This document shows, piece after piece, positions 3,769-60,828 of a DNA stretch of 64,000 bases. The notes under the pieces were generated by a model. The model ran no database searches. It was not told where the DNA came from and worked only from the letters and a program-made list of their open reading frames with translations. Origin of the DNA: Pseudomonadota bacterium (GTDB lineage: Bacteria > Pseudomonadota > Gammaproteobacteria > Burkholderiales > Methylophilaceae); NCBI GenBank assembly GCA_040387515.1, contig JAZKDP010000016.1, positions 35,735-99,734 on the forward strand, in the 5' to 3' direction. A program made the position numbers and the translations under genes. Each line of letters begins with the position of its first letter. Position 1 is the stretch's first letter.

Positions 3769-4581
3769 CTAATCATCAATCGTAATCGTTTTAAAATCAG
3801 CTGGCACAGGCGGATAATCTAATTGAAGTTTTTTTAACGCACTAAATAATAAACGTGAAATCAATAAGTTACGGTTAGTCTTGGAATCTGCTGGCACCAC
3901 ATACCAAGGCGCATAACTAGTGCTAGTCGCTGCCATCGCATTTTCATAAGCCTGCATATATTTCGGCCAAAGTGCACGCTCTTTTAAATCATTTGGATTA
4001 AATTTCCAAGTTTTAGTCGGGTCATCCAACCTATCTTGCATACGCACTTTTTGCTCTGCTTTTGAAATATGCAAATAACATTTAACAATCACCGTACCGG
4101 TTTCAGTTAACTGTTTTTCAAACGCGTTAATCTGCGCATAACGGCGCTTGCACTCTGCATCATCAATCCAATCATGCACTTTCACAATCAGCACATCTTC
4201 ATAATGGCTACGATTAAAAATCACAATCTCGCCTTTTTGCGGCACTTGTTTATGCACGCGCCACAAATAATCGTGCGCTAACTCCTCCTCAGTTGGACCT
4301 TTAAAACTTGCCAAGCGAATGCCCAGCGGATCACATTCACTAAAGACATGTCGTACCGTACCATCTTTTCCGCTGGCATCCATACCCTGCAAAATCAGCA
4401 ACACTTTATGCTTGCCTTGCGCGTATAAAATATCTTGCAACGCATTAATTTTGCTGGCGAGCTTTTCAAGCTCTAATACATCTGCTTCTTTTGATATGCC
4501 ACGTTCAGATCTATCGTCTGGCTTGATATTTTTAAGTGAGAATTTTTTGTGGTTAACGCGATATTGCTGCAAATTAGACAT
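3769..4581 (-). CDS. ppk2: Polyphosphate kinase 2 (PPK2 family)
   Basis: Walker A GMDASGKDGT. The PPK2 lid region and the single-domain size of about 270 aa both fit the family. Confidence 0.8.
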   Translation of the reverse strand: MSNLQQYRVNHKKFSLKNIKPDDRSERGISKEADVLELEKLASKINALQDILYAQGKHKVLLILQGMDASGKDGTVRHVFSECDPLGIRLASFKGPTEEELAHDYLWRVHKQVPQKGEIVIFNRSHYEDVLIVKVHDWIDDAECKRRYAQINAFEKQLTETGTVIVKCYLHISKAEQKVRMQDRLDDPTKTWKFNPNDLKERALWPKYMQAYENAMAATSTSYAPWYVVPADSKTNRNLLISRLLFSALKKLQLDYPPVPADFKTITIDD

Positions 4582-4623
4582 AATAAAAAACCTTTAAAAT
4601 TGTTATCAATTTAACACACTCCA

Positions 4624-5625
4624 TTACAGCGTATCTAGCGGACTACCCACACCACGCCCACCTTTATTAAGTACATGGGTATAAATCATCGTAGTAGAAA
4701 CATCTGAATGGCCTAATAATTCCTGCACGGTGCGAATATCGTAGCCACCTTCAAGCAAATGCGTAGCAAAACTGTGCCTAAAAGTATGTGGTGTAGCTAA
4801 CTTTGTTAACCCAGCTAAATTCACTGCTTTTTTAACACTACGTTGCACAGTTTTTTCATCGGCATGATGTCTGCGCGTGATTTTTGAGCGAGGGTCTACA
4901 GAAAGCTTGATTGAAGGAAACACATATTGCCAACTCCAATCTTTAGCTGCATTTGGGTATTTTCTATCTAACGCCATCGGCATAAACACCGCACCAAAAC
5001 CAGCAGATAAGTCATCTTTATGCAACGCCTGCACTTTAAGCAAATGGCTTTTCAGTGGCTCAATTAGGGTAACTGGCAACATGGTGACCCTGTCTTTAAA
5101 ACCCTTACCCTCGCGCACTAAAATCTCGCGCCTTGCAAAATCAATATCTTTCACTCTTAAACGCAAGGTTTCCATAATGCGCAAACCACTACCATACAAT
5201 AAGCTGGCTATTAACCACATCGTGCCATCTAAACGGTTGAGTATCGCCTGCACTTCAGCCTGTGTAAGTACTACGGGCAAACGCTTTGGCGCTTTAGCCT
5301 GCGTTACGTTATCTAGCCATGGAAGTTCCTCCCCTAGCACTTCTTTATACAAATACAACAAAGCACTTTTTGCTTGATTTTGCGTACTAGCAGAAACATT
5401 GCGCGCTACAGCAAGGTGCGTTAAAAAAGCCTCTACTTCTGTCGCACCCATCTCTTTTGGGTGCTGCTTGCCATGATGCCATATATATCGTTTAATCCAA
5501 TCTACATAAGTTTTCTCTGTGCGTAAGCTGTAATGCTTAATGCGCATTTTTGCTATCACTTGCTCCAACAGTTTAGGTGGCGGAGCAGATAGTTGAGATT
5601 CATCAGGTGTGCTTGGGTTATTCAT
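4624..5625 (-). CDS. intI: Integron integrase IntI (tyrosine recombinase)
   Basis: Strong similarity to IntI1 throughout ([39 protein letters not shown]). The IntI-specific additional domain [21 protein letters not shown]…DPRS…RRHH is present. The catalytic C-terminal motif is [39 protein letters not shown]. It is divergent from the cassette array. Confidence 0.92.
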
Positions 5626-5756
5626 TCATTGTTATTTAGGTGTGCTAAAATTTATTTAATAATTGATTTAATTAAGATTATGCGCTATATATTAAAATTA
5701 TCAACCTGTCCTAATAAAAGATTAAGTTTTTTTTTGGGGTCTACTTTACGTTAGAA
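5626..5756 (+). other. attI recombination site region (core G|TTAGAA at 5750-5756)
   Basis: AT-rich spacer between the intI start and the first cassette. GTTAGAA at 5750-5756 is the exact reverse complement of the TTCTAAC R'' box of attC1 (6295-6301), which places the attI x attC junction between G5750 and T5751. Confidence 0.6.
5663..5691 (+). promoter_or_regulatory. Candidate cassette promoter (Pc-like): TTGATT-17-TATATA
   Basis: -35 TTGATT at 5663-5668 and -10 TATATA at 5686-5691, separated by a 17-nt spacer, oriented into the cassette array. This is from sequence inspection only. Confidence 0.35.
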
Positions 5757-5765
5757 GGCTACTAA

Positions 5766-6290
5766 ATGGACTATCGAGATTTCACCTCTCTACTAACCCG
5801 AATTTTCGGGGCCTTCATGATAGCTAATGTCTTTTTCTTTTATCTCCCAGGCAGTATTAGTAATGCACTTCCTGCGCTGAAGTTGTCGTTTGGGATATTT
5901 ATTTTTCATGCCTTTCTACCTTCCGCCCTCCCGCTGCTAGTAGGCATTCTGTTGATTAAGTTTCCTTACACAATCACTAACAAACTAATAAAAGGTGAAG
6001 CCATCTCAGTTCTGCCAAATCAATATTTACTACAGATTGAGCGCATTGCATTTTGTGTACTGGGGTTCTTTGTAATATCTCGGTCACTATCTGATCTCGC
6101 TTATTACTTAGCCACTTACTATTGGGGCCATCATCTCAATGCTCCATTTCAAACAGAGCAATACATTCTTTCCCCAGATCATTTCGGCAATATCATTGGT
6201 GCAATTCTGGAAACCATATTTGCGCTTTGGCTTATTTTTGGAGCTGTCGGCATTGCAAAAACGCTAGCTAGTGTTCGAGACCGCGAATGA
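5766..6290 (+). CDS. Integron cassette 1 ORF: polytopic membrane protein of unknown function
   Basis: 174 aa with about 4-5 predicted TM helices (FGAFMIANVFFFYL, LPLLVGILLI, AFCVLGFFVIS, IIGAILETIFALWLIFGAVGI). It lies within cassette 5751-6348 and is followed directly by attC1. Confidence 0.6.
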   Translation: MDYRDFTSLLTRIFGAFMIANVFFFYLPGSISNALPALKLSFGIFIFHAFLPSALPLLVGILLIKFPYTITNKLIKGEAISVLPNQYLLQIERIAFCVLGFFVISRSLSDLAYYLATYYWGHHLNAPFQTEQYILSPDHFGNIIGAILETIFALWLIFGAVGIAKTLASVRDRE

Positions 6291-6294
6291 TAAC

Positions 6295-6354
6295 TTCTAA
6301 CCCATCATTCAAGCGGGACTGGCTAAAGCCAGCCCCTTAATTCAAACGTTGGGC
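6295..6354 (+). repeat. attC1 (R'' TTCTAAC … R' G|TTGGGC)
   Basis: The sequence cccatcattcaagcgggactggctaaagccagccccttaattcaaacGTTGGGC contains the imperfect internal palindrome GGGACTGGCT/AGCCAGCCCC. The central 50 nt are identical to attC2. Confidence 0.75.
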
Positions 6355-6357
6355 ATC

Positions 6358-6726
6358 ATGCTAATTTCCAAAACAATCTTACGGTGGAGTCTACTGCTAA
6401 CGGGGGTTGTGTTTTGCCTCATTTACCTTAACAGCGCCTTCTATCGTGCTTGGGTTGCTGGTGGCCCTCCCACCGACAATCCCGAGGGCTGGCTTTTCAG
6501 TGCTGGCAACTATTTATCCTGGGCTTTAGCTTTTCTTACTTCAGGCATTGGTGTGTTTGCTCTTATCAGCAAATTACCTTCATTAAGTAGGGTCGCTTTG
6601 GTTTTTATTGCCTTATCAATAATTCTTGGCATTTTTCCAAGTGCACGAGAGTTTGTAGCATCAGATGTTTGTTTAGACTCAGGCGGCAAATGGCTCTCGT
6701 CAGAACTTAGGTGCATTCATGAGTAA
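6358..6726 (+). CDS. Integron cassette 2 ORF: small membrane protein of unknown function
   Basis: About 122 aa. An alternative TTG start at 6349 would overlap the core site. There are 3-4 hydrophobic helices. The cassette spans 6349-6783. Confidence 0.55.
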   Translation: MLISKTILRWSLLLTGVVFCLIYLNSAFYRAWVAGGPPTDNPEGWLFSAGNYLSWALAFLTSGIGVFALISKLPSLSRVALVFIALSIILGIFPSAREFVASDVCLDSGGKWLSSELRCIHE

Positions 6727-6729
6727 TAT

Positions 6730-6789
6730 GCCCAACCCATCATTCAAGCGGGACTGGCTAAAGCCAGCCCCTTAATTCAAACGTTATGT
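6730..6789 (+). repeat. attC2 (R'' GCCCAAC … R' G|TTATGT)
   Basis: GCCCAAC at 6730-6736 is the exact reverse complement of G+TTGGGC, the first bases of cassette 2 at 6348-6354. This is the R''/R' pairing expected for an excisable cassette. The internal sequence is identical to attC1. Confidence 0.8.
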
Positions 6790-6823
6790 GGAAGTCATCC
6801 CAAAATCACCAAAAAACTGAAAG

Positions 6824-7213
6824 ATGAAACTCATTTTGAAAAGACTATCGATAGTTGTATTTTTCTTAGCGCTGTCCGGGTGTAGCAGTATTCCAACTGG
6901 TGGTCGCGACAATTGGATAGGCTATACAGAATCGGGAGAAGCTTCTTTCTACGCCGATAAATTTGAGAATCGAAAAACTGCTAGCGGAGAGCTGTACAAA
7001 CATAGTTTAAAAACGGCGGCTCATAACAAAATACCTTTCGGTTCAAGTGTAAAGGTAACGAACAAGAATAACGGGAAAAGCATCGTTGTAAAAATAAATG
7101 ATCGTGGCCCTTTCGCAAAAGGCCGAATTATTGATCTTTCAAAATCTGCATTCAGTAGTATTGGTAACACATCTTCTGGTTTTATAAATGTCAAAATAGA
7201 AGTTGTTCGGTAG
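6824..7213 (+). CDS. Integron cassette 3 ORF: RlpA-like double-psi beta-barrel (DPBB) lipoprotein
   Basis: Signal peptide with lipobox LSGCSS. The DPBB/RlpA signature is GEASFYADKFENRKTASGE…FGSSVKVTNKNNGKSIVVKINDRGPF. The cassette spans 6784-7280. Confidence 0.65.
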   Translation: MKLILKRLSIVVFFLALSGCSSIPTGGRDNWIGYTESGEASFYADKFENRKTASGELYKHSLKTAAHNKIPFGSSVKVTNKNNGKSIVVKINDRGPFAKGRIIDLSKSAFSSIGNTSSGFINVKIEVVR

Positions 7214-7215
7214 CA

Positions 7216-7286
7216 CATAACAATTCGTTCAAGCGGGCACTTAAGGTGTCGCTTACCTAAAACTTAACGCTTTAAATCCGTTAAGT
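7216..7286 (+). repeat. attC3 (R'' ACATAAC … R' G|TTAAGT), longer variant with a terminal hairpin
   Basis: ACATAAC at 7216-7222 is the exact reverse complement of G+TTATGT, the start of cassette 3. The 5' half (aattcgttcaagcgggcac) is homologous to attC1/2. The 3' half holds the palindrome AACTTAACG-N8-CGTTAAGTT followed by a T-run. The R' assignment to GTTAAGT at 7280-7286 is tentative. Confidence 0.55.
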
Positions 7287-7724
7287 TTTATTTTTTAAAG
7301 CCTCTTTGTTCCAGCCCACAATGCCTTCTTTCATCACGCGCGCATCTTTGTAACCTGCCCCAATCGCACGCTCTGCTGCAGCGTGTGATGCTTGGCAATA
7401 ACTGTTATAGCAATAAAAAACCAACGTGGTGCTTTTATCTTTTGGTAATTCGGTTAGCGCATATTTGTTGTAAGAAGTGAGCAGTAATGCGCCCGGCACC
7501 ACACCTGCATCTGTGCGCGCTTCGCTATTATTGGCATCTAAAATCGCTACATTTTTTGCTTTATTATCGACAAATTGTTTTACTTCTTTTACTGAGATTT
7601 CTTTTACCGCATCCCCTGCATATGCCAAACCGGCAAAAGCAAATGCAATAAAAACGACTGTAGTAAAAACGGCTGTGAGAAGAAAACTTTCACTGGGAAA
7701 AGTCCTGCTTGATAACTGTTTCAT
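7281..7724 (-). CDS. Secreted rhodanese-domain protein (putative sulfurtransferase)
   Basis: The signal peptide starts at the MKQLSS… methionine, so the ORF-track start at 7763 is probably too long. The rhodanese-like fold has a candidate active-site Cys in FYCYNSYCQAS. Its stop codon overlaps the attC3 core. Confidence 0.55.
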   Translation of the reverse strand: MKQLSSRTFPSESFLLTAVFTTVVFIAFAFAGLAYAGDAVKEISVKEVKQFVDNKAKNVAILDANNSEARTDAGVVPGALLLTSYNKYALTELPKDKSTTLVFYCYNSYCQASHAAAERAIGAGYKDARVMKEGIVGWNKEALKNKT

Positions 7725-7940
7725 ATATGCCCTATCACTAAAAATGACCATCAAAATTAACACGTATGTTCTGACCTAATCTGACCAAATTAGTTACATG
7801 AGTGAGTTAGATTAGTCTGCTGAGTTTGCTAAAACTTACAAGCATCAATAGCATTTAAAATCAGCGTTAAGAATTAAGTTTAAAAACGTGATTTAAAAAA
7901 TAATGTTCAAAAAATGTCGCTTTAGTTTTACACTGTTCTA

Positions 7941-8570
7941 ATGAAAACTTCTTCTATCTTATCCGCCAGCGTTGCTATAAACACAGCAATTATCGCCAAC
8001 GAATCTGAAATAGAATCGCTAGACCGTGCCATTGGCGATGGCGATCACTTTATCAATATCAAGCGCGGCACTGAAGCCATCGCTGGCATGCATGCCGAAT
8101 TGCTAGCCTTGCCTGCTGATGAAGTTTTAAACAAAATTGGCATAAAGCTACTCAGCACAATCGGCGGTGCTTCTGGGCCATTGTTTGCCAGTTTTTTTAT
8201 AGGCATGGCTAAAGTCATCAAACAGAACGGCGGTAATAATCCGCTTGAAATAGCCGCCGCATTTGCCGCTGGCGTGCAAAGCATTATGCAGCGCGGCAAA
8301 GCGGATTTAGGCGAAAAAACTATGTTGGATGTGTTGATTCCTGTCTCCACCACATTCACTTTAAGTGCAGCAGAAGGTAAAAGTCTGGCAGAAATTTGTA
8401 GTGCAATTAAGTTGGCAGCAGATACTGGTTTAGAATCAACCCGTAACTTAATCGCCACGAAAGGCCGCGCGGCAGGTTTGGGCGAACGCGCGATTGGACA
8501 TTTGGACGCAGGCGCAAAAAGCTGCCAAGTGATGGTGCACGCGGTGTGCGATTCAATGCTTAAGGGTTAA
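7941..8570 (+). CDS. dhaL: Dihydroxyacetone kinase, ADP-binding subunit DhaL
   Basis: DhaL motif DRAIGDGDHF, about 210 aa. Confidence 0.8.
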   Translation: MKTSSILSASVAINTAIIANESEIESLDRAIGDGDHFINIKRGTEAIAGMHAELLALPADEVLNKIGIKLLSTIGGASGPLFASFFIGMAKVIKQNGGNNPLEIAAAFAAGVQSIMQRGKADLGEKTMLDVLIPVSTTFTLSAAEGKSLAEICSAIKLAADTGLESTRNLIATKGRAAGLGERAIGHLDAGAKSCQVMVHAVCDSMLKG

Positions 8571-60096: not shown

Positions 60097-60828
60097 ATGG
60101 CAAAACCCAACCCATCATCGATTAAAAGTCAGTCGCTAACTCCAAAATCGTTAGCGCCAAAATCACTGGCGAAAAATAAAGTTACGCTAAACGCAATACC
60201 GCTCACAAAAACTGAAGCAATAGCCATCAAAAATGAGCTGGCGCAACTCAATATAGCTAAACAAGAGGCATTAAAAAACCAGCAGAAAACTGCTGAGATT
60301 CCCGCCGCAGAACAAGATAAGCACTTATTTTTGGAAGCCGTTAAAAACGCGCGCCCTTTAAATACAGAACCGCAACATTCCGAAAAAACCTTCCCCAAAC
60401 CTATCGCCAAGCAATTTATACGGGATGAAAAACAGGCGCTTAGAGATAGTTTAAGCGACGACTTTTACCCTGCGCATGAATTAGAAAGCGGCGAAGAACT
60501 GCTTTACCTGCGCACAGGCCAATCGCCTAGCGTTTTAAGCAAATTACGTCGCGGCTTTTGGGTGATTCAAGCGCAAATCGATTTACATGGATTAATCAGT
60601 GATGAAGCACGGGAATATGTAGCGGAATTTTTAAGCAGCTGCAAAAAACGCAATATCCGCTGTGTGCGTATTGTGCACGGTAAAGGTCTAGGCTCACGCA
60701 ATCGAGAACCTGTTTTAAAACATAAGCTACGCAACTGGTTAATGCAAAAAGATGAAGTGATTGCCTACGCGCAAGCTAAGCCTGAGGATGGTGGAAGTGG
60801 CGCGGTTATTGTGTTGTTAAAAGCTTAA
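60097..60828 (+). CDS. Smr-domain protein (SmrB-like endonuclease) with low-complexity N-terminus
   Basis: C-terminal Smr domain (IDLHGL…VRIVHGKGLGS). Confidence 0.7.
   Translation: MAKPNPSSIKSQSLTPKSLAPKSLAKNKVTLNAIPLTKTEAIAIKNELAQLNIAKQEALKNQQKTAEIPAAEQDKHLFLEAVKNARPLNTEPQHSEKTFPKPIAKQFIRDEKQALRDSLSDDFYPAHELESGEELLYLRTGQSPSVLSKLRRGFWVIQAQIDLHGLISDEAREYVAEFLSSCKKRNIRCVRIVHGKGLGSRNREPVLKHKLRNWLMQKDEVIAYAQAKPEDGGSGAVIVLLKA

Follow-up and report, generated by a model that had tools for sequence, protein, structure and literature searches.

The window analysed here, a 64,000-nucleotide stretch of contig JAZKDP010000016.1 from a Methylophilaceae genome (assembly GCA_040387515.1), carries a small integron near its beginning. 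On the minus strand at 4624–5625 lies intI, an intact gene for an integron integrase of 333 amino acids. Facing away from it, past an intergenic region that holds the attI site (5736–5756), are three plus-strand open reading frames (ORFs), each followed, on direct reading, by a site that starts with a 7-mer ending in AAC. These sites mark off cassette 1 (5751–6348), cassette 2 (6349–6783) and cassette 3, which starts at 6784 and ends somewhere between 7263 and 7280. The array is framed by a polyphosphate kinase gene of the PPK2 family on the integrase side and a rhodanese-domain gene on the other. Taking a complete integron to be intI plus at least one attC site (Cury et al. 2016, PMC4889954), we are highly confident that 4624–7280 is a complete chromosomal integron of a Methylotenera-like freshwater member of the Methylophilaceae, with cassettes 1 and 2 probably still mobilisable and cassette 3 probably fixed in place.

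The intI product matched the NCBIfam integron-integrase model TIGR02249 over its whole length (model positions 1–315 of 315) with 483.8 bits against a cutoff of 265, contained the Pfam domains PF13495 and PF00589, and aligned over residues 24–332 with VchIntIA (2A3V) at 293 bits. In this alignment the catalytic residues R149, K174, H280, R283, H306 and Y315 are all kept; we take their partners in VchIntIA to be R135, K160, H267, R270, H293 and Y302. The IntI-specific patch pairs with VchIntIA residues 203–241, and within this extra domain W232, P245 and H253/H254, which correspond to the residues gripping the extrahelical bases of attC, are likewise kept, with R171 standing where VchIntIA has W157. 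Against the IntI1 equivalog NF011946 the protein reached 377.8 bits, under the cutoff of 435, and it is therefore not a class 1 integrase. Its GenBank record (MES2580139.1), on a contig of 99,734 nt, already bears the name 'integron integrase', and an exact look-up of the integrase returned a single match, a Logan contig of 2.1 kb that is broken off in attC1. In G+C content intI (0.433) and the cassettes (0.386–0.455) are close to the window mean (0.426); the attI intergenic region alone is AT-rich (0.232).

Upstream of intI, the plus-strand attI core consists of GGGGTCTACTTTAC directly followed by the 7-mer GTTAGAA (5750–5756), with the crossover between G5750 and T5751. The same block occurs in three related loci (L097, L092 and L001; L numbers are our labels for compared loci), and divergence sets in right past its GTT; in L097 the core is identical through GTT and then gives way to unrelated sequence. 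The breakpoint was equally sharp in five sister loci (L097, L098, L099, L101 and L102), taken from other assemblies with integrases of at least 90% identity, whose IntI proteins are 91–92% identical to that of the window: in all five, blastn homology of ~85% identity ran from a histidine-kinase gene through PPK2 and intI and stopped at window position 5754. Beyond that point only attC repeats matched the sister loci, and homology to L097 resumed at 7922, just before dakL. The relatives carry other cassettes, three in L097, at least two in L101, at least ten in L091, one in L013 and none in L093; the cassette for an RlpA-like protein described below is alone in being shared, with L094, and the remaining cassette content differs across the compared loci. 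Different cassettes beside an identical attI core in such close lineages imply that cassettes were inserted and excised after a recent split.

In attC1 (6295–6354) the R″ box TTCTAAC lies at 6295–6301 and the R′ box GTTGGGC at 6348–6354; in attC2 (6730–6789) R″ is GCCCAAC (6730–6736) and R′ GTTATGT (6783–6789); and attC3 begins with the R″ box ACATAAC at 7215–7221. At each of the three sites, R″ read as its reverse complement is exactly G followed by the six opening bases of the cassette that the site closes. This boundary rule is real in related arrays: all four variable positions matched in 48 of 59 adjacent attC pairs (81%), compared with 11% for shuffled partners. Because the R boxes are compositionally biased, the null lies far above 1/256 (that is, it is not (1/4)^4), and the chance of finding three matches in three sites is ~1e-3 by the shuffled-partner measure alone and drops much further when the scores of the attC models are taken in. 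Sites attC1 and attC2 share 52 identical nucleotides (6299–6350 and 6734–6785), and both are 85–93% identical to attC sites of the Methylotenera metagenome-assembled genomes (MAGs) L012 and L013.

To score these sites by structure, we collected attC sites through blastn and pattern searches of 80 loci encoding IntI relatives, which supplied many of the same architecture from MAGs of Methylotenera, Gallionellaceae and other betaproteobacteria. Ten sites from other genomes, with the window left out, were given a hand-annotated structure (an AAC/GTT pair, three 3-bp stems with single bulges between them, and an apical stem) and realigned with Infernal to yield a covariance model, R1; a broader model, R2, was built after it. 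Searches of the whole 64 kb, for R1 with filters off, gave attC1 (6292–6357) 65.8 bits with R1 (E 8e-17) and 68.1 bits with R2, and attC2 (6727–6792) 63.7 and 63.3 bits, with E-values for the two sites of 1e-12 to 1e-16 across models. Site attC3 (7215–7272) scored weakly, at 19.2 bits with R1 (E 0.006) and 24.8 bits with R2 (E range 0.002–0.006). Neither model had any other credible match in the 64 kb; one at 60102–60159 (AAAACCCAACCCATC...AATCGTTAGCGCCA; 14.1 and 11.5 bits, E 0.2–1.8) falls at the 5′ end of a 243-amino-acid ORF and lacks the central stem, and we set it aside as chance. Across the 80 loci, R1 found 104 matches at E ≤ 0.001, every one of them upstream of intI and on the opposite strand.

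An alignment of 106 sites had standard pairs in 97.1% of paired cells and compensatory changes in 13 of the 16 pairs, figures that are somewhat inflated by the fitting of the alignment to the model, which makes it lean towards the structure; control structures with slid pairings reached at most 54% standard pairs on the same alignment. The bottom strand of attC1 reads GTTTGA-ATT-AAG-GGG-CTGGC-TTTA-GCCAG-T-CCC-G-CTT-G-AAT-GATGG-GTTAGAA, with bulged T, G and G between the AAT/ATT, AAG/CTT and GGG/CCC stems. Minimum-free-energy folds of single attC strands recovered the central stem, with a z-score of −0.7 for attC2 that does not discriminate, and the fold of attC3 was dominated by a terminal hairpin. 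In a plain MAFFT alignment of 24 sites the central stems were misaligned, and RNAalifold returned a meaningless 4-pair structure from it; the ten-sequence seed took its place. Rfam, which has no attC family, returned nothing relevant in 4000–8200 (E-value search) or in the whole window (gathering threshold).

An initial annotation, made from the letters of this DNA, had credited the integrase with the IntI-specific extra domain, and both the 483.8 bits of TIGR02249 and the patch alignment to 2A3V uphold this. Its reading that every R″ box mirrors G plus the first six bases of the cassette it closes holds at all three sites. As to two checks that it had proposed, scoring with the relatives' covariance models makes attC1 and attC2 clear attC sites (63–68 bits) and gives attC3 a weak score (19–25 bits), and extrahelical bases can be read on the bottom strand of attC1. 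Run in substitute form, none of its three refuting tests went against the integron.

Cassette 1 is made up of an ORF at 5766–6290 and attC1, and cassette 2 of an ORF at 6358–6726 and attC2, both on the plus strand. The ORF of cassette 1 encodes 174 amino acids with about four hydrophobic segments by hydropathy, and that of cassette 2 encodes 122 amino acids with about three, its ATG at 6358 being in frame with a listed TTG at 6349. Neither product matched a Pfam, NCBIfam, PADLOC or PHROG family. Homologues of the cassette 1 product at 60–90% identity came from metagenomes only. An exact look-up of the protein P0010 returned no record. In Methylomicrobium lacus LW14 the product of cassette 2 has a homologue (69% identity), encoded between two attC matches (41 and 59 bits) downstream of an intI fragment (L082). 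DNA identity between cassette 2 and this locus is 68.5% over 413 nt and begins at the cassette boundary (GTTGGGCATC versus GTTAGGCATC), so that the kinship with M. lacus is one of whole cassettes, across bacterial classes. Both cassettes encode small membrane proteins, and with attC sites that are canonical, near-identical and typical of the lineage they are probably still mobilisable.

The M. lacus locus itself (L082 3200–6700, accession AZUN01000001) is a degenerate integron: its intI is a fragment of 46 amino acids, attC sites bound at least three cassettes, and a transposase gene of the IS110 family directly follows the last attC. Metagenome contigs L083–L085 are variants of it with other cassette sets and without the insertion sequence.

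Cassette 3, also on the plus strand, combines an ORF at 6824–7213 with a decayed attC3. The ORF encodes a 129-amino-acid lipoprotein with the lipobox LSGC and an RlpA/DPBB domain (TIGR00413, 121 bits; PF03330). In attC3, R″ (7215–7221) is followed by the spacer AATTC, of the canonical 5 nt, by L″ (7227–7240) and by L′ (7246–7256), and R′ is either a G-less TT at 7264 or the 7-mer GTTAAGT at 7280–7286. The initial annotation had drawn three precisely delimitable cassettes; its coordinates for cassettes 1 and 2 are right, and its end for cassette 3, at 7280, is the part left unconfirmed, in view of the spacing, the alternative R′ and the hairpin described next.

If GTTAAGT were the R′ box, all three cassettes could be equally well-formed and mobile, an alternative that we think improbable although it deserves the most weight of those considered here. 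The 7-mer fits GTTRRRY, its complement ACTTAAC agrees with the R″ box ACATAAC at 6 of 7 positions, its GTT is retained in L094 (as GTTGAGT), and deletion of the 16 nt at 7264–7279 gives back a canonical 7-nt spacer. As it stands, however, the spacer between L′ (CGCTTAC, 7250–7256) and this R′ would be 23 nt, when it is 5–7 nt in 102 of 106 related attC sites and 8 nt at most. R1 and R2 both prefer the proximal R′, placing it at TTAACG (7264), where GTT has lost its G, past the spacer CTAAAAC, and even so attC3 falls far below the scores of attC1 and attC2. GTTAAGT also belongs to the right arm of a hairpin with 12 perfectly paired bp (TAAAACTTAACG-N9-CGTTAAGTTTTA, 7258–7269/7279–7290, inverted repeat I14), which is followed by a T run, and it shares bases with the stop codon of the rhodanese ORF, which is convergent. 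In DNA folds of either strand the hairpin is the dominant structure (−14 to −16 kcal/mol, z about −4.8), and it probably serves as a terminator in both directions, for the RlpA cassette on one side and the rhodanese gene on the other.

The comparison with L094 points the same way. This locus has the same RlpA cassette (93% amino-acid identity) with the same start, GTTATGTGG, and the same junction to the rhodanese gene (82% amino-acid identity), in collinear order, and its upstream cassette differs from that of the window. In its counterpart of attC3 the R″ box has become AAATATC, the AAC being changed to ATC, and the stems are eroded. Because cassette and junction are shared, the RlpA cassette must predate the split of the two lineages and have stayed put while the proximal cassettes turned over. 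Cassette 3 therefore appears to be the oldest cassette, distal in the array, that has been fixed as a resident gene and whose attC is decaying; with R″ and the L stem kept and a correctly spaced GTT missing, it is probably immobile. The GTT at 7280 may be where crossover originally took place, if 16 nt were inserted before the two lineages parted, and it is for this reason that we give the 3′ end of the cassette as 7263–7280. Edges of integrons are where attC sites are often missed, their R′ box being absent (Cury et al. 2016, PMC4889954), which fits attC3.

The 5′ half of attC3 (ACATAACAATTCGTTCAAGCGGGCAC, 7215–7240) is unlike the Methylotenera-type attC of cassettes 1 and 2, and blastn found a 17-nt stretch of it in Nitrosomonas arrays as well (L053 and L048), pointing to another cassette pool as the source of cassette 3. 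As a lead, this half (AACAATTCGTTCAAGC) resembles the attC of aadA7 and the aadA-type attC sites of mobile integrons.

A second alternative is that the element is an inactive relic in which intI, intact as a sequence, has fallen silent or lost its activity and the array has stopped changing. Some features are in keeping with it: the array is short, neither a LexA box nor a supported promoter was found near intI, and loss or decay of intI is frequent at this locus (a remnant in L092, no gene in L095, no integron in L093); of the intI genes in genomes, about a third are reported to be pseudogenes (PMC2426708). We nevertheless regard it as quite unlikely. The gene is full-length, its product retains all catalytic and attC-binding residues, neither attC1 nor attC2 has decayed, and integrase lineages only 8–9% apart in sequence stand beside an identical attI core with wholly different cassettes. 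That there is no integron here at all, but a XerC/D-like recombinase beside chance repeats or intergenic repeats of the repetitive-extragenic-palindrome type, can be dismissed: the XerC, XerD and XerA models do match the integrase, but far under their cutoffs and mostly split in two around the IntI insertion that TIGR02249 spans from end to end, the 104 other matches of the attC model are without exception upstream of an integron integrase and on the strand opposite to it, and homology breaks at attI. The claim of the initial annotation that IntI-mediated site-specific recombination, and not chance repetition, built the array is accordingly supported by the attC models, the IntI patch and the sister-locus breakpoint, and its expectation that cassette content would vary in sister genomes proved true, the content being wholly different and the homology ending exactly at the attI crossover.

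Several observations count against a complete integron with two mobilisable cassettes and a fixed third, in addition to the lean of the 106-site alignment mentioned above. The window comes from a metagenome-assembled genome, and recombination and expression are read from sequence. R1 and R2, being built from relatives, test membership in the attC family of this lineage and are not a universal attC model. The promoter scan of the region was not enriched over shuffled sequence (3 sites versus 4.8 expected) and gave no statistically supported cassette-facing promoter, and a LexA box (CTGT-N8-ACAG, at most one mismatch) was not found near intI. A close homologue of the cassette 1 product, P0004 (72% identity), sits without an attC nearby in L086–L089 and so gives no sign that cassette 1 has been mobile elsewhere. 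Finally, attC3 could still work by using the distal GTTAAGT.

With these reservations, the arrangement fits the established model of VchIntIA bound to attC (2A3V) and of attI × attC recombination. By analogy, IntI, a tyrosine recombinase with the integron-specific extra domain, would recognise the folded bottom strand of attC by its bulged bases and recombine attC with attI between G and TT (5750/5751), inserting promoterless circular cassettes beside attI, and recombination of attC with attC would excise them again. Inserted cassettes would be expressed from a cassette promoter, Pc, and cassette 3 would no longer take part.

Two putative promoters lie between intI and attI. A candidate intI promoter (Pint; TTGATA-16-CATAAT, 5677–5704, minus strand) was found by the consensus scan with 10 of 12 matches, and both of its hexamers are retained in L097. 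The candidate Pc (TTGATT-17-TATATA, 5663–5691, plus strand) is weak, was read by eye and went unreported by the consensus scan; its −35 hexamer is kept in L097, L092 and L001, and its −10 hexamer is not. Two further repeats were considered as signs of a larger rearrangement and set aside as chance matches in AT-rich DNA, namely a 14-nt direct repeat, TTAAGTTTT(T/A)TTTT, at 5722 and 7281, and a 9-nt inverted repeat around the rhodanese gene (7263–7271/7863–7871).

The flanks of the integron are chromosomal. On the proximal side are the PPK2 polyphosphate kinase gene (3769–4581, minus strand; TIGR03709, 375 bits), which is also the neighbour in L091, L097, L098 and L101, and the histidine-kinase gene; PPK2 and histidine kinase together flank the integron in L097, L098, L101 and L102, and the contig of L099 ends 26 residues into PPK2. 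On the distal side, outside the array, the rhodanese-domain gene (7281–7763, minus strand; PF00581) and dihydroxyacetone kinase genes follow. The rhodanese gene adjoins dakL in L090–L096 and is missing from L097. Its C-terminal tail, encoded in the window at 7281–7320, is different in each of the compared loci (the window, L091, L093, L095 and L094) past the conserved GIVGWN, the endings being KEALKNKT, KLTNKAGV, KLTSKSSI, AAKL and EVFAKNKTQRFKR, each followed by the stop; the array junction thus abuts or overlaps the end of the gene.

A metagenome scan with the rhodanese protein added further loci in the same frame, and across relatives the locus that runs from dakK, dakL and (in some) the rhodanese gene to PPK2 and the histidine kinase holds from 0 to at least 10 different cassettes. 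L091 has a full integron with at least ten attC sites and an IntI 69% identical to that of the window. Three other loci present what look like stages of integron loss at one site: L092 (9540–10490) has eight attC sites, an intI remnant that covers residues 37–68 only and an attI whose GTT is mutated to TTT; L095 (7100–8560) has an attC array directly beside PPK2 and no intI; and L093 (5280–6780) has neither integron nor attC, and in their place a gene for a 444-amino-acid membrane protein.

The integrases and attI sites at this locus fall into two types. Type A, in which GGGGTCTACTTTAC precedes GTT, is found in the window, in L097–L102, in the L092 remnant, in L001 and in L100; type B, in which TAGGATGyCTAyTTyAC precedes GTT, is found among the compared relatives in L091, L013, L012 and L016. 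IntI proteins of the two types are 69–73% identical and the flanking PPK2, dakK, dakL and rhodanese genes 82–91% identical, which suggests either that one integron platform replaced another or that divergence was strongly accelerated.

Gene order around the platform has also changed. In the Methylotenera MAG locus L013 (8000–11100) PPK2 is on the cassette side, in the order dakL, X, PPK2, one cassette, attI, intI and kinase, and in the window PPK2 lies between intI and the kinase, so that either PPK2 crossed the integron or the integron crossed PPK2. Type A integrases 86–88% identical to that of the window occur in two further Methylotenera MAGs (L100, 1–7231; L001, 1–11248) in a downstream context without PPK2 and the kinase, which in L100 consists of MazE/Fic, YchJ and RF3. 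Both of these contigs end ~250–300 nt upstream of intI, as expected where arrays break assemblies.

Sedentary chromosomal integrons are operationally those with more than 19 attC sites or those present in all genomes of a species, with homogeneous attC sites. The attC sites of this lineage are homogeneous, given the 52 nt common to attC1 and attC2 and their likeness to those of L012 and L013. Their number is three in the window and ranges in relatives from none (L093) to at least ten (L091), and the element is too small for a sedentary chromosomal integron. It also belongs to none of the mobile classes; for class 1 in particular, the integrase is under the NF011946 cutoff and the flanks are chromosomal and not of the Tn402 type.

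Its closest described counterparts are the chromosomal integron reported in 2008 from Methylobacillus flagellatus KT, itself a member of the Methylophilaceae (Nemergut et al. 2008, PMC2426708), and those of other soil and freshwater betaproteobacteria, such as Dechloromonas aromatica and Nitrosomonas europaea (PMC2426708; Cambray et al. 2011, PMC3108266). Judged from these papers and from taxonomy, the likeness extends to a chromosomal setting in the same family or class, an intI divergent from a short array of mostly hypothetical genes, and no link to resistance; the window differs in genus, in locus (rhodanese/dakL to PPK2) and in cassettes. Among pelagic Methylophilaceae, one study detected no bona fide integrons (PMC10872708), and our literature search found no paper describing a Methylotenera integron.

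With the Vibrio cholerae superintegron the window shares a full-length IntI alignment to VchIntIA (IntI4), with the catalytic and extrahelical-base residues in common except W157, and, as in the V. cholerae repeats (VCRs), the attC sites of its lineage are highly homogeneous. It differs from the superintegron in having 3 cassettes and not ~180, attC sites of 60 nt and not ~120–130 nt, no toxin–antitoxin cassettes and no LexA box found near intI. Architecture and, by analogy, mechanism are those of the class 1 mobile integrons too (IntI1, attI1, aadA-type attC); unlike them, the window has no Tn402 or other transposon context and no resistance genes, and its integron sits among chromosomal housekeeping genes. 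Clusters of attC sites lacking integrases (CALINs; Cury et al. 2016, PMC4889954) have their like in the relatives L092 and L095, in which intI is a remnant or deleted, whereas the window, with its intact intI, has a complete integron.

The element is thus of a known kind, with the architecture and the presumed mechanism of a standard integron; it brings no new mechanism and has no bearing on antibiotic resistance. What it adds is a clean record of a small chromosomal integron in an uncultured methylotroph of fresh water. It also shows that cassette boundaries read off the raw sequence are reliable where attC sites are canonical, and that such reading fails at the distal end of an array, since R′ boxes decay there. 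As a tentative idea, which we think rather less likely to be right than wrong, the interval between rhodanese/dakL and PPK2 could be a long-lived integron hotspot of Methylotenera with unusual dynamics: replacement of the platform by recombination, repeated loss of the integrase, domestication of the RlpA cassette as its attC decays, and a cassette pool shared with co-occurring gammaproteobacterial methanotrophs (Methylomicrobium) in methane-fed communities. The most useful by-product is the compact natural series at this one site. It takes in a full integron, a remnant of intI, attC arrays that lack the integrase, a site that is empty and a cassette that has become fixed, and it could serve for work on the loss of integrons and on the way in which cassettes turn into resident genes.

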